64,000 nt of DNA, taken from the IMG/VR virus record IMGVR_UViG_3300034105_001970. One strand, 5' to 3'. The DNA is from a virus. The position numbers and the translations under genes were made by a program. The notes below the pieces were generated by a model that was not told where the DNA came from, made no database searches, and saw only the letters and a list, made by a program, of their open reading frames with translations. Below, piece by piece: positions 1 to 48,375 of the stretch; position 1 is the stretch's first letter, and the number at the start of each line of letters is the position of its first letter.

Positions 1-658
1 AAATCCAACACTATTGGCATCTGATATAAGTGTTATGGAAGCAACTCCAGGTAGTTTTTTAGCATCTATATCTATGGGACTTAGTAAATCATCGTTAGCA
101 GGTGATGTAAGTTATAGTGCGGGATTGATGGTGAATAGCAATTTAAGTTCAATCGTAATGACGGGTGGTATAACAAAAATGGGAATGACGGATGATGGAC
201 AATTAGATGCAATACATTCATACGGAACTGGAATTGCATACTTAGGTGGAAACTATATGAATTTATTAGGATATACATACATCAAACCAACTGCAAAAAA
301 AGGAACATATGGTTATAATGTGGGTGTAATCAATCTACTCCTTAAAAACGATGAGACGGGTGGGTTTGAATACAATATGGCTACATCGGCAATCGTGTTT
401 TGGACTAAACCTTATCAGTATAATAAAAAATTAACAATATCACCACAGGTATTTACAATGTTTGCACCTATAAGTTATAATAGTGCAACGGGTGTAACAA
501 CAGTTAATAGACATATGGGATTTTTATTAGGTACAGCATTTGACTATAAAATTAGTAAGAGATTTGGATTTTCAGCTAACTACAAATTAAGTGGAAATAC
601 GAAAGCATTTTCTGACTTTTTAAGTAATTTTCAGATAGGCTCTAGAATGATATTATAA
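1..658 (+). CDS. hypothetical beta-strand-rich protein, 5' partial (reading frame open to window edge)
   Basis: ORF is called from TTG at 14 but the frame stays open upstream to nt 2; alternating hydrophobic/polar pattern, Gly/Tyr-rich. Confidence 0.4.
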   Translation, partial: NPTLLASDISVMEATPGSFLASISMGLSKSSLAGDVSYSAGLMVNSNLSSIVMTGGITKMGMTDDGQLDAIHSYGTGIAYLGGNYMNLLGYTYIKPTAKKGTYGYNVGVINLLLKNDETGGFEYNMATSAIVFWTKPYQYNKKLTISPQVFTMFAPISYNSATGVTTVNRHMGFLLGTAFDYKISKRFGFSANYKLSGNTKAFSDFLSNFQIGSRMIL

Positions 659-693
659 TTTTTTATAATATATAAGTGATATTCTCTCTATTT

Positions 694-725
694 TTTGGTA
701 AATTAAGTAAATAGTCGTATATTAG
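694..725 (+). promoter_or_regulatory. Bacteroidota-type promoter
   Basis: TTTGGTAA-N20-TATATTAG upstream of nuclease gene. Confidence 0.45.
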
Positions 726-730
726 AGTAT

Positions 731-1603
731 ATGGCAAGAGTAAGTTATTCACAATACACAATGTGGGCAAATTGTCCACAACAATACAAGTTAGCATACA
801 TAGATAAACTAAGTGAGTCTAAATCAAATATCAATATGGTATTTGGGACAGCCATGCACGAAGTTTTGCAACATTACCTTACGGTTTTCTATGGTGTAAG
901 TAAAAAACAAGCAAATCAATTAGACCTAAACCTAATGTTATTAGAATCTCTTAAATCTAATTTTAAGAAGGAACAAGAGAAGTTTAGTGATGGTGAAGTA
1001 GTTTGTACCAAAGAAGAATTAGAGGAGTTCTATGGGGATGGTATTGAGATTTTAAATTGGTTTAGGAAACATGGTGATAGATTGTTCTCAAAGAAAGGAT
1101 GGGAGTTAGTAGGAGTAGAAAAACCACTTAACTTAAAAGTAAAAGAGAATGTAAGTTATATGGGATTCATCGATGTACTTTTGAAGCATAAAGAAAGTGG
1201 TGAATATTATATTATAGATTTTAAGACAAGTAGAGGTGGTTGGACAAAAGATATGAAGAAGGATAAAACCAAAATCAATCAATTATTACTTTACAAATAT
1301 TTCCTATCTATTCAGTATAAGATAGATATTGAAAAAATTAAAGTAGAATATCATATCATCAAAAGAAAGATAAACAAAGATTACGAATTTCCAATTCCAC
1401 ATATGTCAGCATTCGTACCTGCGCATGGAACTAATACTACATTAAAAGGATATAAGGATTTTATGCAGTTTGTAGATTCAGTATTTTTAGAGGATGGTAA
1501 TTATAATTTACAAGCAAATTTTGAGCCAGTTCCCGGTGAGAAAAATAAAAATTGTAGATGGTGTGAATTTAAAGAGAGAAAATTGTGTTCTTTATTTAAA
1601 TAG
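731..1603 (+). CDS. PD-(D/E)XK nuclease, Cas4/RecB-like, with 4-Cys cluster
   Basis: D..IIDFKT (D-x-EhK-like) core, QLLLY motif, one N-terminal Cys plus C-terminal CRWCEFKERKLC. Confidence 0.55.
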   Translation: MARVSYSQYTMWANCPQQYKLAYIDKLSESKSNINMVFGTAMHEVLQHYLTVFYGVSKKQANQLDLNLMLLESLKSNFKKEQEKFSDGEVVCTKEELEEFYGDGIEILNWFRKHGDRLFSKKGWELVGVEKPLNLKVKENVSYMGFIDVLLKHKESGEYYIIDFKTSRGGWTKDMKKDKTKINQLLLYKYFLSIQYKIDIEKIKVEYHIIKRKINKDYEFPIPHMSAFVPAHGTNTTLKGYKDFMQFVDSVFLEDGNYNLQANFEPVPGEKNKNCRWCEFKERKLCSLFK

Positions 1604-1642
1604 TTATATATATATACATATATAAAACAAAAGGAAAATATT

Positions 1643-1840
1643 ATGGCAGACAAAACACAATTAACATCTGTAAAAATATTAACTGATTTATACAAATCCT
1701 TTAAGATTCATACGATAACTGACGGGATTACGTTACAAAAATTAGTTAATAGAAGTTTAAACCTATATATGACAGATAATTCATATAGAGACAATTTAAC
1801 AAAACATTCAGAGTTACAAGTAAGTGGTTCACAATTTTAA
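1643..1840 (+). CDS. hypothetical small protein
   Basis: ATG ORF in intergenic space, + strand, between nuclease and GT genes. Confidence 0.3.
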   Translation: MADKTQLTSVKILTDLYKSFKIHTITDGITLQKLVNRSLNLYMTDNSYRDNLTKHSELQVSGSQF

Positions 1841-1856
1841 TGAAATAAAATAAGTT

Positions 1857-3260
1857 ATGGCAAAAAAGAAAATCCTGTTATTGGCAGATGATTTAAGAAT
1901 GAGTAGTGGTATTGCTAATATGAGTAAACAATTAGTAATGGGTTCACTACAACACTATGATTGGGTTCAATTGGGTGCAGCAGTAACACATCCAGAAGAA
2001 GGTAAAATTTTAGATTTATGTGATGATGTTCGTGGTAGAACCGGAATTGAAGATGCATATCTAAAAATTTATCCATCAACAGGGTATGGAACGGCAGAAA
2101 AGTTAAGACAAATATTAGAAATTGAAAAACCTGATGCTATTCTACACTTTACAGACCCGAGATATTGGATATGGTTATATGATATTGAACATGAAATCAG
2201 ACAACATACACCAATATTCTTTTACCACATTTGGGATGATTTACCAGACCCTAAGTACAATAGAGATTACTACGAAAGTTGTGATTGGATAGGTACTATT
2301 TCAAAACAAACATTTGGTATTACAAATAGAGTTTGGAGTTTAACCTCAAAAGATAGATGGAAACAACCTGAAAATTGGCAAGTGAGTTATGTACCACATG
2401 GTATTAATCCGGAAGATTATAAAGTAGCAGATGTACCTGCCGATTTCAAAAAGAAAATATTTGGGGATAAAACATATGATTTCGTATTGTATTGGAGTAA
2501 TAGAAATATCAGACGAAAACAACCGATTGAAGTTATATACGCATTCAAAGAATTTGTAGCAACACTTTCACCTGAGCAAGCTAAAAAGACCGTATTGTTA
2601 ATGCATACCCAACCGGTGGATGATAATGGTACAGATTTACCTAGAGTTATTGCAGATTGTGCACCTGAAATCAATGTAGTATTTGATACAGGTAGATGGA
2701 ATGAAACTGAATTAAACTATCTTTATAATATTGCAGATGTTACAATTAATATAGCATCTAACGAAGGATTTGGATTAGCAACTGCAGAATCTATTATGGC
2801 AGGAACACCAATTATAGTAAATGTAACGGGTGGTATACAAGACCAATGTGGATTTGTATTCCAAAATGAAGATGTGCATGGCAATTGGGATTATACAAGA
2901 CCATCGGATTATGTTAAGTGGGGTACTCTACATGATTGGAGATTATGGAAAGATAAATTAAAGTGGGGAGATTGGGTAACACCGGTTTGGTCAACATCTC
3001 GTTCATTTACAGGTTCAGTACCTACACCTTATATATTTGAAGACCATATTGATTATGTTGAAGTAGCAGATTCAATCCGTCATTGGTATGATATGAGTAG
3101 AGAACAAAGAAAAGAAAAAGGAATATTAGGTAGAGATTTTGCACTAGGAGTTGGTGGATTAAGTGTACAAAATATGTGTCAAACTTTAATCAATGGAATG
3201 GATGGTGCATTTACGAATTGGAAACCTAGAAAAAAATACGAATTATTCAAAATAAAATAA
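1857..3260 (+). CDS. glycosyltransferase, GT4 (GT-B) family
   Basis: NEGFGLATAESIMAGTPIIVNVTGG matches the GT4 E-x7-E/EGFG motif; preceded by TAAGTTATG junction. Confidence 0.7.
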   Translation: MAKKKILLLADDLRMSSGIANMSKQLVMGSLQHYDWVQLGAAVTHPEEGKILDLCDDVRGRTGIEDAYLKIYPSTGYGTAEKLRQILEIEKPDAILHFTDPRYWIWLYDIEHEIRQHTPIFFYHIWDDLPDPKYNRDYYESCDWIGTISKQTFGITNRVWSLTSKDRWKQPENWQVSYVPHGINPEDYKVADVPADFKKKIFGDKTYDFVLYWSNRNIRRKQPIEVIYAFKEFVATLSPEQAKKTVLLMHTQPVDDNGTDLPRVIADCAPEINVVFDTGRWNETELNYLYNIADVTINIASNEGFGLATAESIMAGTPIIVNVTGGIQDQCGFVFQNEDVHGNWDYTRPSDYVKWGTLHDWRLWKDKLKWGDWVTPVWSTSRSFTGSVPTPYIFEDHIDYVEVADSIRHWYDMSREQRKEKGILGRDFALGVGGLSVQNMCQTLINGMDGAFTNWKPRKKYELFKIK

Positions 3261-3263
3261 GTT

Positions 3264-4553
3264 ATGGCAGAAATTAAAAAACCTTTAGTAGTAGTTCAAG
3301 GACCGGTAGCAACGCGAAGTGGTTACGGAGACCATAGTAGAGATTTAGTTAGAAGTTTAATTAGTTTAGATAAATACGATATTAGAATTGTATCAATGAG
3401 ATGGGGTAGTACTCCTATGAATGGTCTAAATGCAAAAAATGATAGTGATAAACAAATCATAGATAGAATTGGATTACCTATTGATAGAACACCCGATGTG
3501 TTTATTCAAATTACAGTTCCTAATGAATTTGAAAGAAAAGGAACATATAATATCGGTATTTCAGCAGGTATAGAAACAACGGTTTGTCCTATTGATTGGA
3601 TACATGGTTGTAATAAAATGGATTTGATTATAGTTCCATCTGAATTTTCTAAAGATGTATTAATAAAAACATCGTATGTAGAAAAAAATAATCAAACACA
3701 ACAAGTTATTAATAATTTCAAAATTACAAAACCAATTGAAGTTCTATTTGAAGGATTTAATGATGCAACATTTGGTGCGGCAGAAGTTCCATATATTACG
3801 GAATTAGATGCAATCAAAGAAGAGTTTGCATTCTTAATTACCGGGCACTGGTTACAAGGTCAATTAGGACATGATAGAAAAGATATTGGAATGACAATCA
3901 AAAGTTTTTGTCACGCTTTTAGTAATGAAAAACAAAAACCAGCATTGGTATTAAAAACATCATCCGCTGGGTTTAGTGTAAGAGATAGAGAAGATATGGC
4001 GGGCAGAATAGAAACACTTACAAATGAATTTGGTGATAAGTGTCCTTCAATCTATTTACTACATGGTGATTTAACTGAAACCGAAATGCATGGGTTATAT
4101 GAACATCCAAAAGTAAAAGCAATGGTATCATTTACACATGGTGAGGGATTCGGCAGACCTCTATTAGAATTCAGTTTGACGGGTAAGCCGGTAATTGCAT
4201 CTAATTGGAGTGGTCATTTAGATTTCTTAAAAAGTGGTGCAGTATTATTAGAGGGTGAATTAAAACCCGTAGATAAATCGGCACAAAATCAATTTATTAT
4301 AGATGGTAGTCAATGGTTTTATGTAAATTATTCTAATGCAATTAATAAGTTAAAAGATATTTATAAGAACTACAACACATATAAAGTTGAATCTAAAAAA
4401 TTGGGTAAGTATAATAACGAAAATTTTAGTTTACAAAAAATGACTAAATCATTTGACACTATTTTAACTCAATATGTTCCAACAATAAAACAATTTATAC
4501 CATTGAATTTACCAACCCTTACTAAGATAAATGAATCAGATACATCATTATAG
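3264..4553 (+). CDS. glycosyltransferase, GT4-like
   Basis: HGEGFGRPLLEFSLTGKPVIASNWSG motif near C-terminus; starts 4 nt after upstream stop. Confidence 0.55.
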   Translation: MAEIKKPLVVVQGPVATRSGYGDHSRDLVRSLISLDKYDIRIVSMRWGSTPMNGLNAKNDSDKQIIDRIGLPIDRTPDVFIQITVPNEFERKGTYNIGISAGIETTVCPIDWIHGCNKMDLIIVPSEFSKDVLIKTSYVEKNNQTQQVINNFKITKPIEVLFEGFNDATFGAAEVPYITELDAIKEEFAFLITGHWLQGQLGHDRKDIGMTIKSFCHAFSNEKQKPALVLKTSSAGFSVRDREDMAGRIETLTNEFGDKCPSIYLLHGDLTETEMHGLYEHPKVKAMVSFTHGEGFGRPLLEFSLTGKPVIASNWSGHLDFLKSGAVLLEGELKPVDKSAQNQFIIDGSQWFYVNYSNAINKLKDIYKNYNTYKVESKKLGKYNNENFSLQKMTKSFDTILTQYVPTIKQFIPLNLPTLTKINESDTSL

Positions 4554-5076
4554 AAAATATTTTTATAAAGAAATAGTAACCTCTATTAATGAAGTTAAGA
4601 ATGGCGGATTTTATAGATTATATGGTTACAAATATGAAGATACAGGAGTAAGTGAATCATATAGTGCCGCAACAACCCCATTGTTATTGGTATTAGGTAA
4701 AAATTCACAAAAAGGATTGATACATTGTATAAAATTAAATGAACTACCATTAACTAGATTTTTAAAATTATATGATGATATTCAAAACCAAGCATACACT
4801 CGTGAATTAATTAAAGAAATCGAAGATAAAGATGCAACGTTTAATGAAAATTTAGGATATGACACGGGTAGGAAAGCAATCTTAATTGATAAAAGTGGTA
4901 GAACCTTTTATAAAAAATCAGTTAAAAATAATAGAGATTTGCAAAAATATGATGTATATCGCACTTACAAAAAGAAAAATGTAAAGATGATTAAAGAGTT
5001 GTATTTTGATGTATCTAAACTAAAACCAAAATTAGGATTCAAAAATTTTAATACAGATGAACAAGAAATAATATAA
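4531..5076 (+). CDS. hypothetical protein
   Basis: 181-aa ORF overlapping upstream gene end by 23 nt; no recognisable motif. Confidence 0.35.
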   Translation: MNQIHHYRKYFYKEIVTSINEVKNGGFYRLYGYKYEDTGVSESYSAATTPLLLVLGKNSQKGLIHCIKLNELPLTRFLKLYDDIQNQAYTRELIKEIEDKDATFNENLGYDTGRKAILIDKSGRTFYKKSVKNNRDLQKYDVYRTYKKKNVKMIKELYFDVSKLKPKLGFKNFNTDEQEII

Positions 5077-5077
5077 T

Positions 5078-5704
5078 ATGAAAATAAGTTATGCAATTAC
5101 GGTTGTAAATGAAATAAAAGAAATACAAACATTATTACCACTACTAATAGAAAACAAAAGAGAAGTAGATGAAATTGTTGTTCAATATGATAATCAAAAA
5201 GTGACGGTTGAAGTACTTGAATATCTTAATGATTTGACATTTGACAAAAAAATTGATAAAACAATTGGATATCCTCTGAATGGAGATTTTGGAACATACA
5301 AACAACATCTTACACAAAATTGTACGGGTGACTGGATATTCCAATTAGATGCAGACGAAACAATAGACCCAATATTAATACAGGGATTATCAAATATATT
5401 AGAAGGTAATGATACTATTGAAATGTTTTTTATTCCTAGAATTAATATAGTGAATGGATTAACAGAATCACATATTCAAAAATGGAGATGGAATGTAAAT
5501 GAGAAAGGATGGGTAAATTTTCCTGATGTTCAAGGTAGATTATATCAAAACAAACAATCTATTTTTTGGGCAGGTAAAGTACATGAACAATTACAGGGAT
5601 TTGAAAGTTATACAATATTTCCACAAGATGAAACATATTGTATTAAACACATTAAAGAAATAGAAAGACAAGAAAAACAAAATGCTCTTTACGAAACGTT
5701 ATAA
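5078..5704 (+). CDS. glycosyltransferase-like (GT-A/GT2-like fold)
   Basis: N-terminal beta-alpha (ISYAITVVNE..IVVQYD) and QLDADE DxD-like motif. Confidence 0.4.
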   Translation: MKISYAITVVNEIKEIQTLLPLLIENKREVDEIVVQYDNQKVTVEVLEYLNDLTFDKKIDKTIGYPLNGDFGTYKQHLTQNCTGDWIFQLDADETIDPILIQGLSNILEGNDTIEMFFIPRINIVNGLTESHIQKWRWNVNEKGWVNFPDVQGRLYQNKQSIFWAGKVHEQLQGFESYTIFPQDETYCIKHIKEIERQEKQNALYETL

Positions 5705-6186
5705 TGAATTGGATAATTTTCACAACCGAATGTAGTGGTAAAACAACATTTTGTTCACTAAACAATAATAAATTAAAAGATTATGATTTAGTGGATTGGG
5801 ATGTGATAAAAGCATTACCAAATGGTGAATATGAAAATGAAATATTATTAATAGATGTTATGTTAGAATTGGTTAATAAAGATAATCAGATTTATTTAAC
5901 AAATATATTTCCACCAAACTTTATATTAGAGTGTAAACATTATTATAAAAATATTAAATTTGGAATAATTAATTTGAAAGAAGAAGAATTAAAAATACAA
6001 ATTAAAAGTAGACATAACCCAAATTATAATTCAAATTACATTATTGAAAAAAATAATGAATTAAAAAAAATAGTTGATAAAAAAAATACATTTAAAAGTT
6101 TTAAAAGTTTTAAAGAATTTAAAGAATATTTTGAACCATCATTAATTAATATCAAACCGATGGTACAAAGAATAATAAGATTATGA
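5704..6186 (+). CDS. hypothetical protein with imperfect P-loop
   Basis: N-terminal IIFTTECSGKTTF resembles Walker A but lacks the first Gly; ATGA overlap with neighbours. Confidence 0.3.
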   Translation: MNWIIFTTECSGKTTFCSLNNNKLKDYDLVDWDVIKALPNGEYENEILLIDVMLELVNKDNQIYLTNIFPPNFILECKHYYKNIKFGIINLKEEELKIQIKSRHNPNYNSNYIIEKNNELKKIVDKKNTFKSFKSFKEFKEYFEPSLINIKPMVQRIIRL

Positions 6187-6824
6187 AAGAAGTAAGTGTA
6201 GTTTGTACAAGTTGTAATAGACCAGATTTGTTAGAGAAAACATTAGAAAGTTTTTTCAAATATAACACATATCTAATTACCGATTTCAATGTAATTGATG
6301 ATAGTGCTGTAATTGGTTGTAATGACCATTTAAAAGAAAAATTCCCATCGGTAAGTTTTTGGTACAACAAAACTAATATAGGACAAGTTGCAAGTATAGA
6401 TAAAATGTATGGATATGTAATTACTCCGTATGTTTTTCATATGGAAGAAGATTGGGAATTTTACAAAGAAGGATTTATAGAAGCTTGTTTAGAAATTATA
6501 GATTTAGATGATAAGATTATTTGTGTTCAAACAAGAGACCCAAATGATATAGGGCATCCACTTTTACCTGATGTATATTTAACTCCAATGGGAAATAAAG
6601 TACAAAGAGTAAGTTGGGGATTTGATGGACATTGGCACGGATTTACATTCAATCCTGCACTAAAGAAAATGAAAGATTATCCAGAAGATGGGTATAAACC
6701 AATAGGTAGAGAATTAGAATTAAGTAAATATTATTATTCATTAGGATACTTTGCTATGGCATTTACAGAAGGATATTGTAAGCATGCTGGGTGGGGTAGA
6801 CACATAAAAGATGTAGGCGAATGA
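6183..6824 (+). CDS. glycosyltransferase family 2-like
   Basis: VSVVCTSCNRPDLLEKTLESF and VIDDS (DxD) as in GT2 N-termini. Confidence 0.45.
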   Translation: MKEVSVVCTSCNRPDLLEKTLESFFKYNTYLITDFNVIDDSAVIGCNDHLKEKFPSVSFWYNKTNIGQVASIDKMYGYVITPYVFHMEEDWEFYKEGFIEACLEIIDLDDKIICVQTRDPNDIGHPLLPDVYLTPMGNKVQRVSWGFDGHWHGFTFNPALKKMKDYPEDGYKPIGRELELSKYYYSLGYFAMAFTEGYCKHAGWGRHIKDVGE

Positions 6825-7939
6825 GTTACGAATTAAAAGACATTTCAGTAGTAATACCAAGTTATAATAACTTAGAGTATTTAAAATTAGTATATAAATC
6901 AGTTAGAGATATTTCTGACGATATTGAAGTTATACTATATGGGGATGGGTGTAATGATGGAACAAATGAATGGTTATTATCATTAAAACATACAAATACA
7001 ATTACCCACATATATAGTGAAAAACTTGGACATCCTGTTTTATACGATTATGGATTTCAAATAGCAAGTAGACCTGTAATAGGGATTTTGCACGCAGATA
7101 TGATAGTTCACAAAAATTTCTTTGAGAATATTTTGAAGTATGTGGGAACAAATAAAATCGTATGTGGTATGTGTGTAGAGCCACCAATTCATCCAGCAGG
7201 TAAGGAAAAATATCAATTAGATGCAGGTACATATCCAAATGAGTTTAATCAATCTAAGTTTGATGAGTTCTATGAAACGATAGAAAAAAATACAACTAAC
7301 AATGGTATATTTGCACCTTGGTTTGTATTGAAAGATGAGTACATTAATATATTAGGTGGACACGATACAAATTTTCAAACAATCGAAGATGTTGATATTT
7401 TTCATAGAATGGTAATTGGTGGATTTGATATTATACAAAGTAGAGATGCATTAGTTTATCATTTTACACAAAGAGGGCATAAATTTGAAGGTGGTGATTT
7501 ACAAAAAGTACAAGATGATTATCAAAGTAGAATAGATACCGATACAAAAAAATATATTAGAAAATGGGGGTGTATATGGTATTTTGATATAAATCACAAA
7601 CCAATTCCAATGCCAAAATATAACATTGGGTTAATCATTTATAATGCACCACAAGATTTAGTTATATTTTTAGAACCATACTTTACAACTATATACACTA
7701 ATAATTTGGGTCAAGTTGAGGGTGTTAGTAAGTTAAAAGATATTAATGATGAACTTACCAATGATAGTTTTGTGACAATAAATGCAGAACATCTAACAAA
7801 CGAAAACATAGAATTTTTAATGAAAGTACCATATGTATTAAAACAAAATACACAAATTGGGCAATTCAAAATAGATATATTTAATCTATATATAAAAAAC
7901 TACAATGAATATCAGAATGAATTAATTAAAGTAAATTAA
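6821..7939 (+). CDS. glycosyltransferase family 2
   Basis: ISVVIPSYNNLEYLKLVYKSV...EVILYGDGCNDGT is the canonical GT2 signature. Confidence 0.65.
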   Translation: MSYELKDISVVIPSYNNLEYLKLVYKSVRDISDDIEVILYGDGCNDGTNEWLLSLKHTNTITHIYSEKLGHPVLYDYGFQIASRPVIGILHADMIVHKNFFENILKYVGTNKIVCGMCVEPPIHPAGKEKYQLDAGTYPNEFNQSKFDEFYETIEKNTTNNGIFAPWFVLKDEYINILGGHDTNFQTIEDVDIFHRMVIGGFDIIQSRDALVYHFTQRGHKFEGGDLQKVQDDYQSRIDTDTKKYIRKWGCIWYFDINHKPIPMPKYNIGLIIYNAPQDLVIFLEPYFTTIYTNNLGQVEGVSKLKDINDELTNDSFVTINAEHLTNENIEFLMKVPYVLKQNTQIGQFKIDIFNLYIKNYNEYQNELIKVN

Positions 7940-7969
7940 TCTTATATTTATATATTAGAGGAAATAACT

Positions 7970-8632
7970 ATGACAACAAACAATAGTGTAACAACTAAAC
8001 CGGAAGTACCAACCGAAGATGATTTTGAAGGAATGCCATCAGCCGCAATTACAGGTGTAAGTGCAGAAAACACAAACGAAGGACCATTAGGCACAATGAG
8101 AGATACAAAACCTACTCCAACAAATGATATTTTGTGGAAAGCAACAGGTAGAGTATGTGAAGGTAGAGGAATGACAGAAAGAGTTAAGATGTATGAAAAG
8201 AAAGGTGGTGGATGGAGAATGGGTAAGCATGTTGATGAAACTGTTTATACAACACTAAGTGAATTCTATAAAAACGAAATCAAACCTAGAAAAGAAGCAA
8301 AAGAGTTAATGGTTAAAAGAAGATTAACTCCAGAAAGTATATTAAGAGAAGAAGAACCGGGTGGTGATGTAGTAGCAAGTAATGGTACACAAGACCACGA
8401 AGTTTCAATGGCAAAGGCATCATTGGTGAGTATTGGTAAAGCAGTAAATGATTTAATGGGTAGATTGGGTGATACCGAAAAAGATATTCCAGGATGGATA
8501 CAAGACCATATCACAAATGCCGAAAACTATATTGTTCAGGCATCAAAAGGATATTATGACCAGGAAGATAAAAAATTAGGAAACAACATTCCAAAACCTG
8601 AAAATCAAACACAATATTCAAATGGAAAATAA
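7970..8632 (+). CDS. hypothetical acidic protein
   Basis: 220-aa ORF, hydrophilic, no motif recognised. Confidence 0.4.
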   Translation: MTTNNSVTTKPEVPTEDDFEGMPSAAITGVSAENTNEGPLGTMRDTKPTPTNDILWKATGRVCEGRGMTERVKMYEKKGGGWRMGKHVDETVYTTLSEFYKNEIKPRKEAKELMVKRRLTPESILREEEPGGDVVASNGTQDHEVSMAKASLVSIGKAVNDLMGRLGDTEKDIPGWIQDHITNAENYIVQASKGYYDQEDKKLGNNIPKPENQTQYSNGK

Positions 8633-8999
8633 AGAATTACAACAATACATACAAGACGTTATCCACTTACAAACTCAAGTTAAGTTCTTTCATTGGCAAA
8701 CTAAAATCTATGCAAAACATAATGCATTAGGTGATTTATATGATACGATTTCAGGTAACATAGATGAATTTGCAGAAATTACAATGGGAAAATATGGTAG
8801 AATCGCAGTGGATGGTTTGAGTTATACTTTCATCAATGTTTCCGATGAAAATGTAATTAGTGTAATAGATGGTGGTATTGATATTTGTACAAAAATAACA
8901 AGTGCATTAGATGCAAAAGTAGATACTGATTTACTTAATTTGAGAGATGAATTATTAGGTTCATTGAATAAAACTAAGTATTTATTAACTTTAAAATAA
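8622..8999 (+). CDS. ferritin/Dps-like four-helix protein (tentative)
   Basis: FHWQTKIYAKHNALGDLYD...IDEFAEI resembles Dps helix A/B pattern (HW..G..F..LH...D.IAERI). Confidence 0.3.
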   Translation: MENKELQQYIQDVIHLQTQVKFFHWQTKIYAKHNALGDLYDTISGNIDEFAEITMGKYGRIAVDGLSYTFINVSDENVISVIDGGIDICTKITSALDAKVDTDLLNLRDELLGSLNKTKYLLTLK

Positions 9000-9002
9000 G
9001 TT

Positions 9003-9845
9003 ATGTATAAGATATTAGCGGTTGGTACTTCATTTACACATGGATTAGCGTTACACTTCTATAAAAGAAAAGAACTAGGATTACCATTAGATTTTAATAC
9101 AATTACAAATGATGAGTTATATTTTAATTATAAACATTCATATTCTAGTATTTTAGGTAAAAAATTAGATTTACCTAATCAAATCGTATCAAGTTCGGGT
9201 TCAAGTAATTTTTTTGAAGGATTAGAGATTATAAAAAAATCAATTAATTCGATATATTTACCCGGTGATGATAAGTTTGACCATAATTTTTTTAAACCAA
9301 AGGTAGTTATATTGCAACTTACAAATGTTACACGAGATTTTTTTATATACGAAAATAAAATTTATAAATTAGATTTTGAAACATATGATGGTTTTTTAAA
9401 ATCAAAAAAAGAATTAATAGATAATATAGATGTTGTAGATAAAAAGGATTTTATAACTAAGTTAGAGTTGGAATTAGAATTATTTACATTAGATGAGGTA
9501 CGTTGGAGAAAAAATCAAAGTGCATATTTTATAAGTAAGATTAATATACTACATAAAATTTTAAAAAGTAAAGGTGTTATATTAAAAGTAATATCATATT
9601 CAGATGATTACAAAGAAAATTTGGATAAATTTGATGAGAATATATTTGTAAAAATTCAACATAATGGTATTTCATTTTCTAATATCTTTGATTTTGTAAC
9701 TATAAATAAATTAAGAGTAGTAGATGATTTAGGAATAGATGATTCGCATCCTAATTTTGAAGCACATGAAATTGTAGCGGATAATATATATAATAGTATA
9801 TTAAATGATCCTGGATATTATACATCATTTCATTCAATTATTTAA
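9003..9845 (+). CDS. SGNH/GDSL-hydrolase-like paralogue
   Basis: N-terminal ILAVGTSFTHG block and C-terminal DDSHPNFEAHEIVADNI (SGNH block V DxxHPN-like). Confidence 0.4.
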   Translation: MYKILAVGTSFTHGLALHFYKRKELGLPLDFNTITNDELYFNYKHSYSSILGKKLDLPNQIVSSSGSSNFFEGLEIIKKSINSIYLPGDDKFDHNFFKPKVVILQLTNVTRDFFIYENKIYKLDFETYDGFLKSKKELIDNIDVVDKKDFITKLELELELFTLDEVRWRKNQSAYFISKINILHKILKSKGVILKVISYSDDYKENLDKFDENIFVKIQHNGISFSNIFDFVTINKLRVVDDLGIDDSHPNFEAHEIVADNIYNSILNDPGYYTSFHSII

Positions 9846-9887
9846 TATTTATATTATAGTATTAACCCCCTTAAATACACAAAAACA

Positions 9888-10208
9888 ATGGACCAAAACG
9901 CATATACCGTATTAATAACCGCAATTTCAATTTTAGGTGGAGCATCTGCATGGAGATTCTATGAAAAAAGAGCAATGCATAAAGAAAGAGATGAAGATTT
10001 TATTAGACACGATTGTAAAGATAGAATTGCTAAATTAGAAGGATTATTAGAAGCAGCCGGTAAAGAAAAAGATGATTTACGAATGATGATTTTAGATTTA
10101 ACTAAACAAGTAGCAGCACTATCGGTTAAAGTTGAATTTCTTACAAAAGAAAATGAAAAATTAGCAAAAACATCAACTAAATCAGACAAGAAACAATTGA
10201 ATGGATAA
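9888..10208 (+). CDS. membrane-anchored coiled-coil protein (spanin-like topology)
   Basis: N-terminal TM helix followed by charged heptad-rich segment. Confidence 0.4.
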   Translation: MDQNAYTVLITAISILGGASAWRFYEKRAMHKERDEDFIRHDCKDRIAKLEGLLEAAGKEKDDLRMMILDLTKQVAALSVKVEFLTKENEKLAKTSTKSDKKQLNG

Positions 10209-10267
10209 GTTCAATATTAATAACGAAATCAGGGCCTAAATGGACGGTGATAGTATAATACTAAAAA

Positions 10268-10486
10268 ATGGAAAAACAGACAAAAAAGAGAATAACTGTT
10301 TTAAAAGATACATCACTAATGTTAGCGATGTTCTTTCTACCACTGGGTTACGATGCACTATTCAAACTAATGATGGAATTGACAGGTTCGTATTGGGGAG
10401 CAGACGTTATCTTTTACTCAATTTCAGGTTGTTTTTGGTTATCTTATATATTACTTACACGATATTTAAATAAACATCCTAAATGA
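10268..10486 (+). CDS. small membrane protein, 2 TM (holin-like topology)
   Basis: Two hydrophobic helices; ATGA overlap with next gene; preferred over overlapping frame 10240..10473. Confidence 0.3.
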   Translation: MEKQTKKRITVLKDTSLMLAMFFLPLGYDALFKLMMELTGSYWGADVIFYSISGCFWLSYILLTRYLNKHPK

Positions 10487-10803
10487 TACTTTTGAAAAAT
10501 TTATTAAATGAAGTTGTAACAAATAAAGAAATAATTTGTGACAAATGCAAGTGGTCTTGGGATATTATAGACGGTGGAAAAAATATCTATGTTTGTCACA
10601 AGTGTGGACATGATAATAAAAAAGTAAATGAAGAAGATGGACATGAAAACGATAGAGATATGGTAGTGGGTGTTGCAGAAATTGTGCATATGATTAGAGA
10701 TATGAAAAATAGAGAAGAAGTATTGCATTCTATGATTGAAAAATTCAATAAAGAGAATGTTATTTATAATAGAGGTGAATTTACAAAAATGTGTGGACTA
10801 TGA
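10483..10803 (+). CDS. zinc-ribbon protein
   Basis: CDKC...CHKCGH four-Cys ribbon near N-terminus. Confidence 0.4.
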   Translation: MILLKNLLNEVVTNKEIICDKCKWSWDIIDGGKNIYVCHKCGHDNKKVNEEDGHENDRDMVVGVAEIVHMIRDMKNREEVLHSMIEKFNKENVIYNRGEFTKMCGL

Positions 10804-11615
10804 TAAAGTTAAAAGATTTGTTAGAAGATACAGGTAAGCATTTAAATACAGGTCTTTCCGATACTGAAAAAACCGAAGCAGAACGTGATTTTAATCAACA
10901 TCACGCTACATCTACATACACTAAACATATGGGAGTACCTGCGGAAAAACATACCGTAGATTCTGATGATGGTGAACCAAATGAACCTGGTGCACAACAT
11001 TTATATAATAAAAACAAAGACAAAATAGATAGAGGATATGAGCCGGTTGATGGACATATTGAAGATGATAAGTTGAATGTAAAGGAATCAATGTTATTAA
11101 GAGATTTAATGGCAGAAGATAAGAAATTAAGAATATTTGATTTCGATGATACATTAGTAAAAACAAAATCATTTATTTTTGTAACACATAGAGGTGGAAA
11201 AAAATCTAAATTAAGTCCTGGGGAATATGCAGTTTATACACCAAAACAAGGTGACCAATTTGATTTTTCAGATTTCAACAATGTAAACGAACCCGAACAA
11301 ATACTGGGTTATACAAAATTACTTAAAAGATTTGTAAGTAGTGAAGGGGAACGTAGAGTAACTATATTAACTGCTCGTTCAGCATATGCACCTGTTAAAC
11401 AATACTTAAAAGATATTGGTATGGGTAGTATCTATGTAATGGCATTAGGTGATGCAGACCCACAAAAGAAAGCAAAGTACATTGAGGATATGATTAAAAA
11501 GGGATATGATGATATATTCTTTATAGATGATTCCCAAAAAAATATATCAGCAGTACAACAATTAGAAAAAAAATATCCAAACGTTAAATTTAGAATACAA
11601 TTAGCTAAGCTTTAA
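10791..11615 (+). CDS. HAD-superfamily phosphatase-like
   Basis: Motif I RIFDFDDTLV, motif II ILTARS, K..IFFIDDS motif III/IV. Confidence 0.45.
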   Translation: MWTMIKLKDLLEDTGKHLNTGLSDTEKTEAERDFNQHHATSTYTKHMGVPAEKHTVDSDDGEPNEPGAQHLYNKNKDKIDRGYEPVDGHIEDDKLNVKESMLLRDLMAEDKKLRIFDFDDTLVKTKSFIFVTHRGGKKSKLSPGEYAVYTPKQGDQFDFSDFNNVNEPEQILGYTKLLKRFVSSEGERRVTILTARSAYAPVKQYLKDIGMGSIYVMALGDADPQKKAKYIEDMIKKGYDDIFFIDDSQKNISAVQQLEKKYPNVKFRIQLAKL

Positions 11616-11653
11616 TTTGGTAATATAGTTTTTATTTATTAAATTAGTTATAT

Positions 11654-12415
11654 ATGAAAGGAATAAAGTTTTGGACAAAAGATGGTTTTGATGTTGCTAC
11701 CTGTAAATGGCGACTACACGAACGAGTTAATCAAAAATTTAATGGAAGTGGTTCAGACCAAAGTGGCAACTGCTGGTATACCTATAATGAATTAGGATAT
11801 AGAGGTGATTCTATTTACAAAGATGGATTTAGAATTATGAGTATTGGTGATTCACACACCGAAGGTGTTGGTGTTAACGATGAGGAAACATGGTCACATC
11901 AATTATGTAAACTTATACCGGGTGCAGTAGATTTGAATTTTGGATTTGGTGGTAGAAGTAATGACTATATTTTCAGATGTTTACAAACTTACTTTAAAAC
12001 AGCAAGACCACAATTAGTTAATATAATGTATACATATCCATCTCGAAAAGAATATTATACAGGTACTGGTGACTTAGAACCATTTCACGTTAATCCTTGG
12101 GGATATTTTTTAGAGGATGATTTGGGCAAAAAAGAGCATGCTGGTTTTTTAGAAATTACACAAGATGAAAATGATTTAATTAATTGGTATAAAAATCATC
12201 TATTGATTACATATTTTTGTAAATTAAATAATGTTCCTATGGTATGGAATGGTAGTTTCTTAAATGATACTACAATTAAGGAAGAAAATAGATTTGATGG
12301 TGATTATGACAATTTCATAGATAAATCGGCAGATATAAAACACGCTGGAGCAGAGCATAATAAAAAATATGCTAAAAAGTTGTATAATTTCTTAAAACAA
12401 AACGATGTCATTTAA
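11654..12415 (+). CDS. SGNH/GDSL-hydrolase-like paralogue
   Basis: IMSIGDSHTEGVGV block I and C-terminal GAEHNKKYAKKL. Confidence 0.35.
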   Translation: MKGIKFWTKDGFDVATCKWRLHERVNQKFNGSGSDQSGNCWYTYNELGYRGDSIYKDGFRIMSIGDSHTEGVGVNDEETWSHQLCKLIPGAVDLNFGFGGRSNDYIFRCLQTYFKTARPQLVNIMYTYPSRKEYYTGTGDLEPFHVNPWGYFLEDDLGKKEHAGFLEITQDENDLINWYKNHLLITYFCKLNNVPMVWNGSFLNDTTIKEENRFDGDYDNFIDKSADIKHAGAEHNKKYAKKLYNFLKQNDVI

Positions 12416-13247: not shown

Positions 13248-13578
13248 AATTTTACAATCATTTCTGTTATTTACGGCAGGTGGATTTGGACATTGGTACA
13301 TTATGTATTGGCAATTTAAAACACCAAATTGGATTAAATCACCAATACCGTATCTATTAGCAGTAGTATGTACTTTCCTTTGGATTAAAGCATCCGAATA
13401 TGGTGTAGCTGGATTTGCTGGTAGTATGTGGAGTAATAGATTTTTATTCTTTGTTACGGGAGTATTTGTGGGTATTATACTATATCCATATCATTTCAAT
13501 CAACCATTTACACTCAAAGTATTGGTGCAGTGTGCGTTAGCGGTATCTATAATTTTAGTAAGTATTTTTTGGAAATAA
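13234..13578 (+). CDS. integral membrane protein (3-4 TM)
   Basis: Hydrophobic helices throughout 114 aa. Confidence 0.4.
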   Translation: MNLVKILQSFLLFTAGGFGHWYIMYWQFKTPNWIKSPIPYLLAVVCTFLWIKASEYGVAGFAGSMWSNRFLFFVTGVFVGIILYPYHFNQPFTLKVLVQCALAVSIILVSIFWK

Positions 13579-13599
13579 CAAAACTTAGTAGTATCTTTA
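13568..13599 (+). promoter_or_regulatory. Bacteroidota-type promoter
   Basis: TTTG-N20-TATCTTTAAGTATA (same extended -7 as 54869 and 58410 promoters). Confidence 0.5.
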
Positions 13600-16467: not shown

Positions 16468-16707
16468 ATGGCAACTGAAACAAACCCGATAGTAGTTCTT
16501 AAAAGAATTGCACCTGGAGATAGATGGGTATTTGCAGATAGAAAAACAACAATTTATCCATCACTTACCGATGCATTAGAAGCGTATTATCAAGTTAATG
16601 GTGATACACAATATTTTATAGATGCAAGAGATGGGACAGTTAGTGTGTTTGAAGTTAAAGAATACGATGAACCAATAAAAACATTCTCATTATATGGTGA
16701 AGACTGA
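16468..16707 (+). CDS. hypothetical small protein
   Basis: 79-aa ORF, 2-nt spacing from upstream. Confidence 0.35.
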   Translation: MATETNPIVVLKRIAPGDRWVFADRKTTIYPSLTDALEAYYQVNGDTQYFIDARDGTVSVFEVKEYDEPIKTFSLYGED

Positions 16708-17062
16708 TAATAATTATAAAACCATCTTTTCTGATATAGATGGTACTTTAATAGAGCAAGTTAGATTTGAAGATTTAGACCCAAATGTAGTGACTGTACT
16801 ACCGGGTGTTAGTGAAAAAATGAATGAATGGTATGAAGCCGGCCATCACATTGTATTAACTACGGCTCGTCCTTGGGATTTAGAATTGATAACTAAAATG
16901 CAAATGATAACCGCTGGTATTCGTTATCATCAATTATTAATGGGTATTGGTAGACAAGAACGATACTTAATTAATAATAGTGAAAAACTAACACCGGATG
17001 TAAGTAGAGCAATTGGAATCTCAGTAAAAAGAGATGAAGGCTTTGGGAATATTACAATATGA
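16694..17062 (+). CDS. small HAD-like phosphatase (candidate heptose bisphosphate phosphatase, GmhB-like role)
   Basis: IFSDIDGTLIE motif I and VLTTARP motif II; translationally coupled to the HldC-like gene. Confidence 0.4.
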   Translation: MVKTDNNYKTIFSDIDGTLIEQVRFEDLDPNVVTVLPGVSEKMNEWYEAGHHIVLTTARPWDLELITKMQMITAGIRYHQLLMGIGRQERYLINNSEKLTPDVSRAIGISVKRDEGFGNITI

Positions 17063-17475
17063 TAAAAGTTTGGGTAAACGGAACATTTGATATAGTCCAT
17101 TTAGGACATGTTCAGCTCTTAAAGAAAGCAGCCGACTTAGGCGATTTCCTAATCGTAGGACTTGATGGTGATAAACGAGTTAAAGAATTAAAAGGTGAAC
17201 AAAGACCTATAAATAATTTAGTAAGTAGAATTACACTATTAGAGGCTATTAGATATGTAGATAGAGTTGTAGCATTTGATTCAGATGAGCAATTAGAAAC
17301 ACTTATCAAAACCATGAGACCTGCAATAATGGTTATAGGTGAGGAATACAAAGGTAAAAAAATTATAGGAAGTGAATATGTTGGTGAAATTGTATATTTT
17401 CCTAAAATGGAAGGATTCAGTTCTACTAATGTTATAAATCAATTATATAATGGCAAAGGTAACGGAGTGTTGTAA
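17059..17475 (+). CDS. nucleotidyltransferase, RfaE domain II / HldC-like (heptose-1-phosphate adenylyltransferase family)
   Basis: VWVNGTFDIVHLGH (HxGH), KELKGEQRPI, RYVDRVVAF, GEEY, EGFSSTN align along the whole length with RfaE-II/TagD cytidylyltransferases. Confidence 0.75.
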   Translation: MIKVWVNGTFDIVHLGHVQLLKKAADLGDFLIVGLDGDKRVKELKGEQRPINNLVSRITLLEAIRYVDRVVAFDSDEQLETLIKTMRPAIMVIGEEYKGKKIIGSEYVGEIVYFPKMEGFSSTNVINQLYNGKGNGVL

Positions 17476-17812
17476 AATACCAAAAGGTTGGGGACATGAA
17501 TTAATAATCTACAATGATGAAAAATATTGTGGAAAAGTATTAGTGTTTAAAGAAGGATGTAAGTTCTCTATGCATTATCATATGTTGAAACAAGAAACTT
17601 GGTATGTAAACAAAGGTAGTTTTATTTACAAATGGATAGATACTGAACGAGGGATTACCGAAGAAACTACTTTAAAGGTAGGAGATGTAGTTACTCAATA
17701 TCCAGGACAACCACATCAATTGATAGCATTAGAAGATGGTGAAGTATTTGAAGTAAGTACGGAACATTTTGATTCAGATAGTTATAGAATATACAAAGGT
17801 GATATATTATGA
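17450..17812 (+). CDS. cupin-domain protein (possible sugar isomerase/epimerase)
   Basis: G-x5-HxH-x4-E-x6-G (GCKFSMHYHMLKQETWYVNKG) and second cupin motif GDVVTQYPGQPH. Confidence 0.5.
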   Translation: MAKVTECCKIPKGWGHELIIYNDEKYCGKVLVFKEGCKFSMHYHMLKQETWYVNKGSFIYKWIDTERGITEETTLKVGDVVTQYPGQPHQLIALEDGEVFEVSTEHFDSDSYRIYKGDIL

Positions 17813-18653: not shown

Positions 18654-18662
18654 TTTATATAA

Positions 18663-46877: not shown

Positions 46878-47647
46878 ATAAGTTATGGATTTTCGGTGAT
46901 AGTTTTTCACATGGGCACGGCTTTAATAATTCTGACCCATTCTATGAAGTTACTTTATCCGATGATATTGATAAAAGATATTGGTGTGAAATAGTAGCAC
47001 ATGAATTAAATTTGGAACTACATAATCACGCTAGAGTAGGTGCATCCAATGACTATATATTGGACAACATTTTAAATAACGCAGATAAGATTGGAGAAAA
47101 CGATTATGTTGTAATCCAAGCTACATATTATAGTAGATTTGATGTTCCACACAAAAGCTCATTTAGTTTTTTACATACAATTGTTAGATATGATGATAGT
47201 AGACATATTAACGTAAACTTAATAGGTGATGATGATATGACTGACCATAAACACGAAACATTAGTAGATTTTGCAGTTTATTTTGCAGGATTACCGGCAT
47301 ACAAACACAGACAACTTAATAGATTTGAAAAATTAATAAATTTACTAAAAACAAAAAATGTTGTATTTTGGTGTTTAGAATCTCCAGATTCTCCAAATAT
47401 ACATGAAATTGAAATTCTAAAAAAACCATACTTTCTTAAATTTGAGAACAAATATATAGGTGGAGAGGATTGTTTCAAAGAACACAAAGCAACTATTTCC
47501 GATGAAAGTAATGGTAAGATGCAAGATGGACATATTGGTGTAAAAGGACAACAAATCATGTCAGTAGAAATACTAAAAAAGTTTAACCAACGAATGGCTA
47601 ATCATTTTTTTGAACATATTAATACTTATAGGAAATCGTTATTATGA
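46874..47647 (+). CDS. SGNH/GDSL-hydrolase-like paralogue
   Basis: LWIFGDSFSHGHG (GDS-x-x-xG), QDGHIGVKGQQIM (DGxH). Confidence 0.55.
   Translation: MNKLWIFGDSFSHGHGFNNSDPFYEVTLSDDIDKRYWCEIVAHELNLELHNHARVGASNDYILDNILNNADKIGENDYVVIQATYYSRFDVPHKSSFSFLHTIVRYDDSRHINVNLIGDDDMTDHKHETLVDFAVYFAGLPAYKHRQLNRFEKLINLLKTKNVVFWCLESPDSPNIHEIEILKKPYFLKFENKYIGGEDCFKEHKATISDESNGKMQDGHIGVKGQQIMSVEILKKFNQRMANHFFEHINTYRKSLL
47588..47647 (+). repeat. 60-bp direct repeat, copy 2
   Basis: See 46818-46877. Confidence 0.7.
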
Positions 47648-48375
47648 AAGTTTTAGTTATCGGTGATAGTTGTACTGATGTATTTGTATATGGTTATTGT
47701 AAAAGATTATGTCCCGAAGGACCTGTGCCAATATTTGAACCGAGTAGAACAATTACCAATATGGGTATGAGTGGTAATGTAGTAGCTAATCTTAAATCGT
47801 TGGGAGCTGAGAAAGTTGAGTTGGTTACTAACAAAGAACAAATTACAAAGACTAGATATGTAGAGGAAAAAGCAAATCATATGATTATCAGAATTGATAG
47901 TAATGATAAGGTTAGTAATTCATTTGATGTAAAAAGAGTTCCATTCAATGATTATGATGCAGTTATTGTAAGTGATTATGACAAAGGATTTCTATCATTA
48001 TCAGATTTGAAATTGATTAGTGATTCACATCCATTAACTTTTATAGATACAAAGAAACCATTATCAGCAGAAATGCGTAATTATACATTCATTAAGATAA
48101 ATGAAGTTGAGTGGGAAAATTGTAAAGGACAGGAATACGAAATGTGGCGAGAAAGATTAATTATAACAATGAGTGAACGAGGTGCAATGTATGATGGTAT
48201 TACATATCCGGTTAACAACGATATTGAGGTTAGAGATTTGAGTGGTGCAGGTGATACCTTTATGGCTTCATTAGTAGTTAGTTATTTAAAAACAAAAAGT
48301 ATAGAAGTTAGTATTGAATACGCAAATGATTGTGCAACAAAAGTTGTACAAAAACGTGGTGTAGTTACATTGTAA
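47644..48375 (+). CDS. PfkB-family sugar kinase, RfaE domain I / HldA-like (heptose 7-phosphate kinase family)
   Basis: VLVIGDSCTDVFVYGYCKRLCPEGPVPIF aligns with RfaE-I N-terminus (ILVVGD...SPEAPVPV); DLSGAGDTFMASLV anion-hole/GAGD motif. Confidence 0.7.
   Translation: MKVLVIGDSCTDVFVYGYCKRLCPEGPVPIFEPSRTITNMGMSGNVVANLKSLGAEKVELVTNKEQITKTRYVEEKANHMIIRIDSNDKVSNSFDVKRVPFNDYDAVIVSDYDKGFLSLSDLKLISDSHPLTFIDTKKPLSAEMRNYTFIKINEVEWENCKGQEYEMWRERLIITMSERGAMYDGITYPVNNDIEVRDLSGAGDTFMASLVVSYLKTKSIEVSIEYANDCATKVVQKRGVVTL

Follow-up and report, generated by a model that had tools for sequence, protein, structure and literature searches.

A seven-gene glycosyltransferase block in a viral genome fragment, and its conserved core and variable outer genes among related aquatic phages

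The 64,000-nucleotide stretch of viral DNA analysed here (IMG/VR record IMGVR_UViG_3300034105_001970, referred to below, at its full length, as the window) carries near its start a block of glycosyltransferase genes, and the question addressed in this study is which acceptor these enzymes may glycosylate. The results showed that seven open reading frames (ORFs) of the + strand fill positions 1857 to 7939 exactly, with a spacing of -23 to +3 bases between neighbours. These limits coincide with those given by an earlier sequence-only reading of the window, which had counted six genes and had listed two small unknown proteins and a P-loop protein beside the transferases; the count is seven, and only two of the ORFs fall outside the glycosyltransferases, namely an unknown protein of 181 amino acids (aa), u181, and a P-loop protein of 160 aa, p160. 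The other five encode two GT4-like enzymes (GT4a and GT4b) and three GT2-like enzymes (GT2a, GT2b and GT2c; Table 1), in agreement with the proposal of five glycosyltransferases in one co-directional phage block. Three more candidates had been suspected elsewhere, and these were not borne out, as none of the other window ORFs of at least 200 aa matched a glycosyltransferase family. All seven block proteins are free of hydrophobic segments, with a maximum 19-residue Kyte-Doolittle hydropathy of at most 1.27, and the five transferases are soluble and acidic (pI 4.8 to 6.4).

The family assignments of the earlier reading held for all five enzymes, as judged by Pfam with curated cut-offs of 26.4 bits for Glycos_transf_1 (PF00534) and 23.3 bits for Glycos_transf_2 (PF00535), and the motifs quoted there (EGFG...E in both GT4-like proteins, VVIPSYN and DGCNDGT in GT2c) were found and are invariant or nearly so among homologues. 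GT4a scored 33.4 bits (4e-8) against Glycos_transf_1, above the cut-off, and also matched GT4-conflict (1e-6) and PHROG 2170, and GT4b scored 22.1 bits (1e-4), below the cut-off, and matched PHROG 2170 ('glycosyltransferase') across its full length with 1e-19. In GT4a the EX7E motif (E303-x7-E311), together with N-E-G-F-G-x5-E and R-N-I-R-R-K, is kept unchanged across 10 diverse homologues with identities as low as 27%, including that of Rhodothermus phage RM378; in GT4b, GEGFGRPLLE, which contains EX7E, and DRK are invariant in 56 unique homologues. By family and motif both are assigned to the GT4 type, a GT-B and retaining class, and since EX7E is conserved in both, both look catalytically competent. 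The closest relative of GT4a among all solved chains searched by phmmer was the chlorovirus protein B736L (3.6e-8), with the similarity confined to the C-terminal nucleotide-binding half (residues 199-330).

All three GT2-like proteins scored above the cut-off for PF00535: 31.0 bits (3e-7) for GT2a, 31.4 bits (2e-7) for GT2b and 56.3 bits (5e-15) for GT2c, which also matched Glyco_tranf_2_3 (6e-8), an EpsD-like NCBIfam model (6e-15, far under the cut-off of that model) and, marginally and with its N-terminus, PHROG 841 (3e-5). GT2c consists of a GT2 domain at about residues 1-220 followed by a C-terminal region of 150 aa. GT2a has a genuine DxD, D-A-D-E, that does not vary among 44 unique homologues, and GT2b and GT2c carry variant acidic motifs with no literal DxD, namely E-E-D-W-E, conserved in 5 sequences, and L-H-A-D-M, invariant in 6 sequences, respectively. 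Family and motif thus place the three enzymes in the GT2 type, a GT-A and inverting class.

Of the two remaining block proteins, u181 is basic (pI 9.4), with a predicted small beta-barrel plus helices, and 22 columns, many of them tyrosines, are invariant across 29 sequences. No usable match to it was found in Pfam, PHROGs or NCBIfam, and an exhaustive profile search gathered 83 representatives, all of 77 to 222 aa and without domain fusions. When viral structure models were searched with Foldseek, five DNA end protectors of the T4 gp2 type were among the top 18, with weak values (E 0.008-0.26, TM 0.3-0.4), and hhalign against a 6-member gp2 alignment gave a marginal E of 0.015 at a probability of 3%, pairing u181 residues 29-85 with T4 gp2 residues 140-195. 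The gp2 family of PHROGs did not match u181, the gp2 HMM did not pick it up, and no gp2 homologue was found by HMM and tblastn in the complete genome of Flavobacterium phage immuto, the sampled RM378 region or the window. The resemblance to T4 gp2 is therefore a weak lead and falls short of a finding. For p160, which has no family match, all 26 homologues retain an R-H pair and the E-C-S-G-K-T loop without change; a conserved Walker-A G-K-[ST] and a three-layer fold of the gluconate/shikimate-kinase type mark it as a putative P-loop small-molecule kinase, the substrate of which is probably a sugar or sugar acid.

Homologues of GT4a are confined to phage and metagenomic contigs. At least 8000 occur in public metagenomes (63-95% identical among the matches listed, on contigs of up to 250 kb), and GT4a relatives are encoded on 383 IMG/VR contigs. 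In the phage collection only immuto, 'Microcystis phage Mel-JY01', an uncultured 484-kb phage and RM378 (28% identity) matched, and in 185,579 species genomes the matches were limited to 13 contigs of metagenome-assembled genomes (MAGs), every one phage-like in its synteny and without any isolate among them. For comparison, ORFs from 87 loci were clustered. The nuclease gene upstream of the block (Table 1) lies 5' of GT4a in all 83 loci that extend far enough upstream, GT4b comes after GT4a in 72 of 73, both GT4b and GT2a are found in all 43 loci in which the sequence continues for 4.5 kb or more past GT4a, and a member of the u181 family lies between GT4b and GT2a in 41 of these 43. The 65-aa protein encoded directly 5' of GT4a has homologues at the same position in the relatives L005 and L006, in immuto and in 9/13 MAG contigs; it might be read as a ribbon-helix-helix-like regulator. 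The fixed core is therefore nuclease, 65-aa protein, GT4a, GT4b, u181 and GT2a. Core order was kept in 43/43 loci of sufficient length and also in 13 more divergent MAG contigs, and the core enzymes are 41-95% identical across phages binned with very different bacteria. The nuclease is a fixed upstream neighbour of the island, which does not imply a role in glycosylation.

The genes that follow GT2a differ from phage to phage. In relatives they encode a Glyco_trans_1_2 protein, more GT2s, a HAD-NTP-transferase fusion, a DegT aminotransferase, GNAT acetyltransferases, epimerases, methyltransferase-like proteins, a PRK-kinase/aldolase fusion, radical SAM proteins, kinases and nucleotidyltransferases. 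The island ends at homologues of the 220-aa and DUF5856 proteins found downstream of the block, at a distance from GT4a of about 10.7 kb in the freshwater relatives (for the 220-aa protein, in L028, L047 and L082) and of 6.1 kb here; the DUF5856 match of the boundary protein has an E-value of 7e-19, and the L005 relative of the 220-aa protein carries a weak DUF3008 match in its record. The DUF5856 protein (8622-8999) shows a Dps/ferritin-like sequence pattern (FHWQT...HNALGDLYD) and is conserved in relatives and in Mel-JY01. The block is the short version of a glycan island belonging to a broad clade of large aquatic phages, the hosts of which are probably Bacteroidota.

Outer genes differ even among phages with GT4a proteins 89-91% identical. 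The slot between GT2a and GT2b holds the P-loop kinase in the window, L005 and L027, whereas L011 has an unrelated gene of 286 aa there (13843-14666) and L012 (at 13830) has none; GT2b homologues are restricted to L005, L011, L012 and L027, with 74-80% identity in the three that were measured. GT2c is only 44-48% identical to its counterparts in L005, L011 and L012, where the flanking genes are 80-91% identical, and this, with the differing content of the slot, suggests cassette exchange inside the island.

A further protein, rich in Ser and Thr and 65-166 aa long, is encoded between u181 and GT2a in 31/43 relatives (e.g., L053 13181-13561, L061 13125-13625 and L037 4368-4565). It has a conserved N-terminus of 40 aa (MTSKEFVLWLKGF...) and a tail of hypervariable length, 60% S/T/G/P/N and 30% S+T, with the terminus ...YGYPSGSAWSYTNS, and in its composition looks like a candidate mucin-like acceptor for glycosylation. 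Elsewhere in the window, a 213-aa ORF without family match (55117-55758) combines an N-terminal Cys-rich segment with a Ser/Thr/Asn/Gly-rich stretch (SAPTHGVHSPGITTNGTNIVYTNGNTTYTHGS), of which the composition and a YTNG motif recall that tail.

The phages immuto and Mel-JY01 share with the window the order nuclease, small ORF, GT4a, GT4b, small ORF, GT2a, variable genes and a GT2c-like gene. Identity between immuto and the window is 43-48% for GT4a, GT4b and GT2a and 33% for GT2c, and glycosyltransferase annotations already stand on these genes in the records of both phages. In comparison to immuto, Mel-JY01 and the moraphages, the window island is the shortest variant, with no internal nucleotide-sugar genes and with a P-loop kinase and GT2b of its own. 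In the 2025 moraphage paper, four glycosyltransferase orthogroups are counted among the core orthogroups (those of all or at least 80% of genomes, the tier being unspecified) with their function left open, and moraphages are described as aquatic phages with Bacteroidota hosts, linked to RM378 (PMC12619734). In Mel-JY01 (L002, PP395634), for which no literature was found, the module of nuclease, GT4a, GT4b and GT2a common to immuto and the window occupies 5674-13989, and GT4a is divided into two ORFs of 573 and 909 nt, suggesting a frameshift or a sequencing error. The genome of immuto (vB_FspM_immuto, Immutovirus, host Flavobacterium sp. LMO8; L008, MW353176) encodes a full 7-deazaguanine DNA-modification set (FolE, QueD, QueE, QueC, QueF and DpdA) at 18607-36971, homologues of which were not seen in the window, and a 423-aa ThyA with large insertions and the canonical D169 and N177 retained.

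A promoter-like motif stands before the nuclease gene (Table 1). In its general form, TTTGGTA-N(15-18)-TCGTATCTTTA, it recurs between genes just 5' of gene starts, and its 3' half (TCGTATMTTWR) has 11 copies in the window, all on the + strand and all intergenic, in comparison to 0.56 expected; in L005, L011 and L012 it stands at an equal position relative to GT4a. We take the motif to resemble the -33/-7 promoter of Bacteroidota, from which we infer a Bacteroidota host and early transcription units. As the next copy lies only at 18.1 kb and the first clear hairpin with a T-run near 14.9 kb, the nuclease gene, the 65-aa gene and the seven-gene block probably form one unit transcribed by the host polymerase, likely early. 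A scan of positions 1-14000 for sigma-70 promoters and terminators gave fewer promoter-like sites than shuffled sequences and was uninformative, and a cluster of motifs within the GT4b coding sequence was discarded as a false product of a loose regular expression. The T4-type late-promoter string TATAAATA has 8 scattered copies in the window, none of them 5' of the block. The tRNA scan of the window found none, and a tRNA-like string near 19.8 kb was not a tRNA by ARAGORN.

Table 1. Features of the glycosyltransferase block, its neighbours and related sites in the window
Feature	Position	Strand	Remarks
GT4a (ORF1, 467 aa)	1857..3260	+	first core enzyme, GT4-type by family and motif
GT4b (ORF2, 429 aa)	3264..4553	+	second GT4-like enzyme, always paired with GT4a
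u181 (ORF3, 181 aa)	4531..5076	+	conserved basic core protein
GT2a (ORF4, 208 aa)	5078..5704	+	small soluble GT2, last core enzyme
p160 (ORF5, 160 aa)	5704..6186	+	putative P-loop small-molecule kinase fold, variable slot
GT2b (ORF6, 213 aa)	6183..6824	+	GT2, restricted to the subclade of the window
GT2c (ORF7, 372 aa)	6821..7939	+	GT2 domain plus C-terminal region, fast-diverging
PD-(D/E)XK nuclease (Cas4/RecB-like)	731..1603	+	Pfam PDDEXK_1 1e-21; PHROG exonuclease 8e-30
65-aa basic protein	1643..1840	+	directly 5' of GT4a; no family match; pI 9.1
220-aa protein and DUF5856 protein	7970..8999	+	downstream boundary of the variable island
Promoter-like motif TTTGGTA-N18-TCGTATATTAG	690..725	+	heads the unit with nuclease and glycosyltransferase block
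Motif copies	690-725, 18110-18142, 19235-19268, 22095-22130, 24122-24153, 30185-30220	+	intergenic
Further motif copies	38570-38603, 51848-51881, 54868-54900, 58410-58441, 61618-61652	+	intergenic
Candidate sugar-nucleotide donor genes: HAD-type phosphatase, HldE-domain-II-like nucleotidyltransferase, cupin	16694..17812	+	
HldE-domain-I-like (PfkB) sugar kinase	47644..48375	+	TIGR02198 1e-33, below cut-off; PfkB 4e-13; PHROG 8133 5e-79

Five soluble Leloir-type transferases of two mechanistic classes with a kinase, fixed and exchanged sets of genes, no membrane or export machinery and an occurrence on phage contigs only together point to the stepwise assembly of a glycan in the cytoplasm, and the 41-95% identity of the first enzymes throughout the clade, on phage and metagenomic contigs only, argues that the acceptor is constant and specified by the phage. 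We favour, at a probability of roughly 0.35, a phage protein as this acceptor, most likely one exposed on the virion, that is glycosylated stepwise in the cytoplasm. The block would then be a phage-encoded glycan-assembly line in which GT4a, GT4b and GT2a place the first, conserved sugars on the acceptor, and the variable genes after GT2a (here the putative P-loop sugar kinase, GT2b and GT2c; in relatives, nucleotide-sugar pathways and transferases of other kinds) lengthen the glycan or add decorations to it, so that related phages would have a common glycan core with differing outer parts. Sugar donors would be drawn from the pools of the host, with a possible contribution from a phage pathway of the NDP-heptose type encoded elsewhere in the window. 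Such a scheme may be likened to the O-glycosylation of serine-rich adhesins initiated by GtfA/GtfB and to the capsid glycosylation that chloroviruses and mycobacteriophages encode for themselves. A protein acceptor is favoured because the relatives' tailoring genes (DegT, GNAT, epimerase, HAD-NTP-transferase, methyltransferase and radical SAM) are those typically met in the chemistry of surface glycans, because a Ser/Thr-rich protein is encoded in most islands, and because of the analogy with adhesins and the chlorovirus relative of GT4a.

The possible donor genes lie well downstream of the block. The adenylyltransferase at 17059-17475 matched TIGR02199 (7e-36, below cut-off) and PHROG 7878 (3e-42) and is flanked by a HAD phosphatase (Hydrolase_3, 2e-3) and a cupin (Cupin_2, 2e-7), and in the 221-kb relative L006 a homologue of it is located within the island. 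Together with the PfkB kinase (Table 1) it would supply the separate halves of an HldE-like enzyme, and an NDP-heptose-like donor pathway is only a suggestion because these HldE-like matches are below the equivalog cut-offs. Three window ORFs of the SGNH/GDSL-like hydrolase/acyltransferase type, with G-[DT]-S near the N-terminus (9003-9845, 11654-12415 and 48695-49426), were also observed, the last alone giving a Pfam GDSL match, which is weak; the relatives' families f22 and f26 of this type lie inside the island, and such enzymes could modify glycans by O-acetylation. The window also encodes an ATP-dependent DNA ligase at 39009-40118 and a UvdE UV-damage endonuclease (3e-64) at 58632-59501.

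The same HldE-like kinase and adenylyltransferase suggest ADP-heptose, a donor for the lipopolysaccharide (LPS) core, and bear on a further, unlikely explanation in which the enzymes remodel the host envelope, working from the cytoplasmic face on LPS-core or lipid-linked intermediates and so altering O-antigen, capsule or LPS; superinfection exclusion, the avoidance of re-adsorption of progeny to debris, or evasion of grazers would be the uses. This is the usual reading of the analogous clusters of the cyanomyoviruses P-SSM2, S-SCSM1 and S-SCSM2R (PMC12801897), and the nearest curated families of GT2c, weak as these matches are, are exopolysaccharide enzymes. However, the block proteins have no membrane segments, and no flippase, polymerase or priming (initiating phosphoglycosyl) transferase was found in the window island or in those of the relatives, nor is a ligase present; with no membrane-embedded protein in the block, it also differs from the Gtr-type serotype conversion of temperate phages (GtrA/GtrB/GtrC), which uses a bactoprenol glucosyltransferase embedded in the membrane, a flippase and a transferase specific to the serotype. 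Moreover, host surface glycans are strain-specific whereas the core enzymes are conserved across phages that were binned with very different bacteria, and the cultured relatives are lytic myoviruses, for which a lasting seroconversion has no obvious benefit. A virulent lifestyle, which the sequence-only reading had assumed, is plausible when judged from these relatives. Of the three acceptors that it had named, virion proteins, a host surface glycan and hydroxymethylated DNA, all are still candidates, the host-surface one being weakened by the soluble enzymes, the lack of flippase, polymerase and priming transferase, and a core that is phage-only across the clade.

A soluble product, that is, a glycoside or oligosaccharide such as a compatible solute, a signalling sugar or a primer-bound glycan made as metabolic support of infection, seems very unlikely. 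Weak matches of GT4a to the solved structures of four enzymes with small-molecule acceptors (trehalose synthase, sucrose-phosphate synthase, BshA and MshA) and the gluconate/shikimate-kinase fold of p160 are consistent with it, but these GT4a matches (E 0.02-0.7) are of a kind common to GT4 enzymes in general, five transferases with fast-swapped tailoring genes are hard to square with one metabolite, and the diversification of the outer chemistry suggests a surface that is recognised.

Several observations weigh against a protein acceptor. No such acceptor was identified in the window, where no homologue of the Ser/Thr-rich island protein and no structural genes were found (nor did that protein have a homologue in 50,697 phage records), and structural genes are not adjacent to the block, its neighbours being the nuclease gene here and genes for DNA polymerase B, clamp loader and dUTPase in relatives. 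The unit seems to have a promoter of the host type, probably an early one, u181 is basic and weakly similar to a DNA-end-binding protein, and GT4-like enzymes are known to glycosylate DNA in the phages RB69 and DLP3 (bioRxiv 10.1101/2025.06.16.659550). The searchable literature yielded no glycoprotein data for any member of the clade, and in the open-access papers searched there was nothing specific on capsid glycosylation together with transferases of phage origin.

Much of this genomic setting would also suit the close rival of a protein acceptor, which we hold to be only slightly less probable: a base of the phage DNA, hydroxylated or hydroxymethylated, would serve as the acceptor for mono- to oligosaccharides made by the transferases. 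A glycan on the DNA would shield the genome from host restriction and from the non-specific nuclease of the phage itself, and its outer variation would stem from an arms race with modification-dependent nucleases. The island stands at the end of a replication and recombination module of polymerase, clamp loader and nuclease, the GT4a homologue of RM378 adjoins genes for a DNA-polymerase-I-like protein, ribonucleotide reductase, Erf and a helicase, and the probably early promoter and the basic, weakly gp2-like u181 fit as well. A non-specific DNA/RNA endonuclease (Endonuclease_NS, 7e-34) is encoded at 14930-15568, which raises the issue of how the phage's own DNA is spared. In RB69 and DLP3, up to three GT4-like enzymes act sequentially on DNA, with a donor pathway of HAD phosphatase, nucleotidyltransferase/kinase and isomerase (bioRxiv 10.1101/2025.06.16.659550), and the window has a HAD protein, a nucleotidyltransferase, a cupin and a PfkB kinase.

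On the other side, a hydroxymethylated-DNA acceptor would be expected to go with a thymidylate-synthase homologue as its hallmark, and this was absent from the window, which is only part of the phage genome, and, in 103 of 104 loci, from the sequence up to 10 kb away from the core: tblastn with the ThyA proteins of E. coli and immuto against the window and the 104 loci matched only immuto itself and L093, and a match near the core was found in 1/104 loci. TET/JBP and cytosine methyltransferase domains were likewise absent among window ORFs of at least 200 aa, although known DNA-glycosylation pathways are usually clustered with such base-modifying enzymes (bioRxiv 10.1101/2023.12.21.572611). 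The sole ThyA homologue of immuto is canonical, and that phage already has its 7-deazaguanine set. All five enzymes are acidic, five to seven transferases with amino-sugar tailoring exceed any known DNA glycan, and a phmmer search of all solved chains with GT4a and GT2c as queries gave no match to a DNA glucosyltransferase (neither the T4 alpha- and beta-glucosyltransferases, AGT and BGT, nor the JGT/TarP-like GT-A enzymes). A more far-reaching version, which we regard as quite improbable, is that the island writes an oligosaccharide on the genome with no ThyA, TET or methyltransferase partner; this would require a new acceptor base or attachment chemistry, and the gp2-like protein and the Cas4-like nuclease would form one DNA-protection module with it, and through the exchanged outer genes each strain would have its own 'DNA serotype' in the arms race with nucleases that depend on modification.

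With known DNA-glycosylation systems (the T4 alpha- and beta-glucosyltransferases, the GT-A and GT-B enzymes linked to 5mYOX or ThyS, and the arabinosyltransferases of RB69/DLP3) the island shares the T4-like setting beside replication genes, the GT4-like enzymes (those of RB69/DLP3) and comparable types of donor enzymes, whereas the island has no linked base hydroxylase, hydroxymethylase, methyltransferase or dioxygenase, and the tailoring in relatives is far more elaborate. The GT-A class that acts on phage DNA has the signature R...DDD...EDY/F.

For the favoured protein acceptor, the nearest parallels are other glycosylation systems. Serine-rich-repeat adhesins of Gram-positive bacteria are O-glycosylated in the cytoplasm by GtfA/GtfB and then by extending transferases; like them, the island has an adjacent pair of GT4-type GT-B enzymes followed by more soluble transferases, and in relatives a Ser/Thr-rich protein in the locus. 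The likeness holds at the level of the GT4 family only. GT4a and GT4b both retain EX7E whereas GtfB is non-catalytic, no accessory Sec system is present, and the Ser/Thr-rich protein is absent from the window. Among viruses, the capsid N-glycans of chloroviruses and the fibril glycans of Mimivirus are made by virus-encoded enzymes, and the virions of mycobacteriophages Che8, Corndog and Myrna are reportedly glycosylated in the same manner (Freeman et al. 2023, a study cited in PMC12619734). The viruses that glycosylate their virions use soluble transferases in the cytoplasm, and those of chloroviruses make a conserved glycan core with strain-specific decorations; amino-sugar pathways with aminotransferase and acetyltransferase are found both in giant viruses and in the relatives of the window phage. 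In contrast to these viruses, structural genes are not adjacent here, and glycosylated virion proteins are not known from this clade.

The cyanomyoviruses P-SSM2, S-SCSM1 and S-SCSM2R are similar in being large lytic aquatic myoviruses with many soluble glycosyltransferases and an unproven acceptor, and their clusters, labelled 'LPS / cell-wall', also carry nucleotide-sugar enzymes and give rise to the same three acceptor hypotheses; they differ in that GT10, 11, 24 and 25 are listed and no conserved-core architecture is described (PMC12801897). GT4a had no DNA or protein match to the cyanophage records in the phage collection. In the searchable literature we did not find described the architecture of a fixed core and hypervariable tail bounded by conserved genes, the invariant small basic core protein, the Ser/Thr-rich protein of the relatives or the kinase fold of p160.

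The enzymology of the block is ordinary, and the question of the acceptor is directly testable in the cultured relative immuto, which has the same core. What gives the question its weight is that, in this abundant and almost uncultured clade of large aquatic phages, few genes are conserved as well as GT4a, GT4b and GT2a. If the acceptor were DNA, the chemistry of genome hypermodification would be extended. To our knowledge, self-made glycans on the virion have been demonstrated so far in actinobacteriophages and giant viruses alone. A virion acceptor would add to these the tailed phages of Gram-negative aquatic bacteria, whose glycan coats would be self-made and strain-variable, with a bearing on adsorption, the stickiness of particles, grazing, and recognition by antibodies and lectins.

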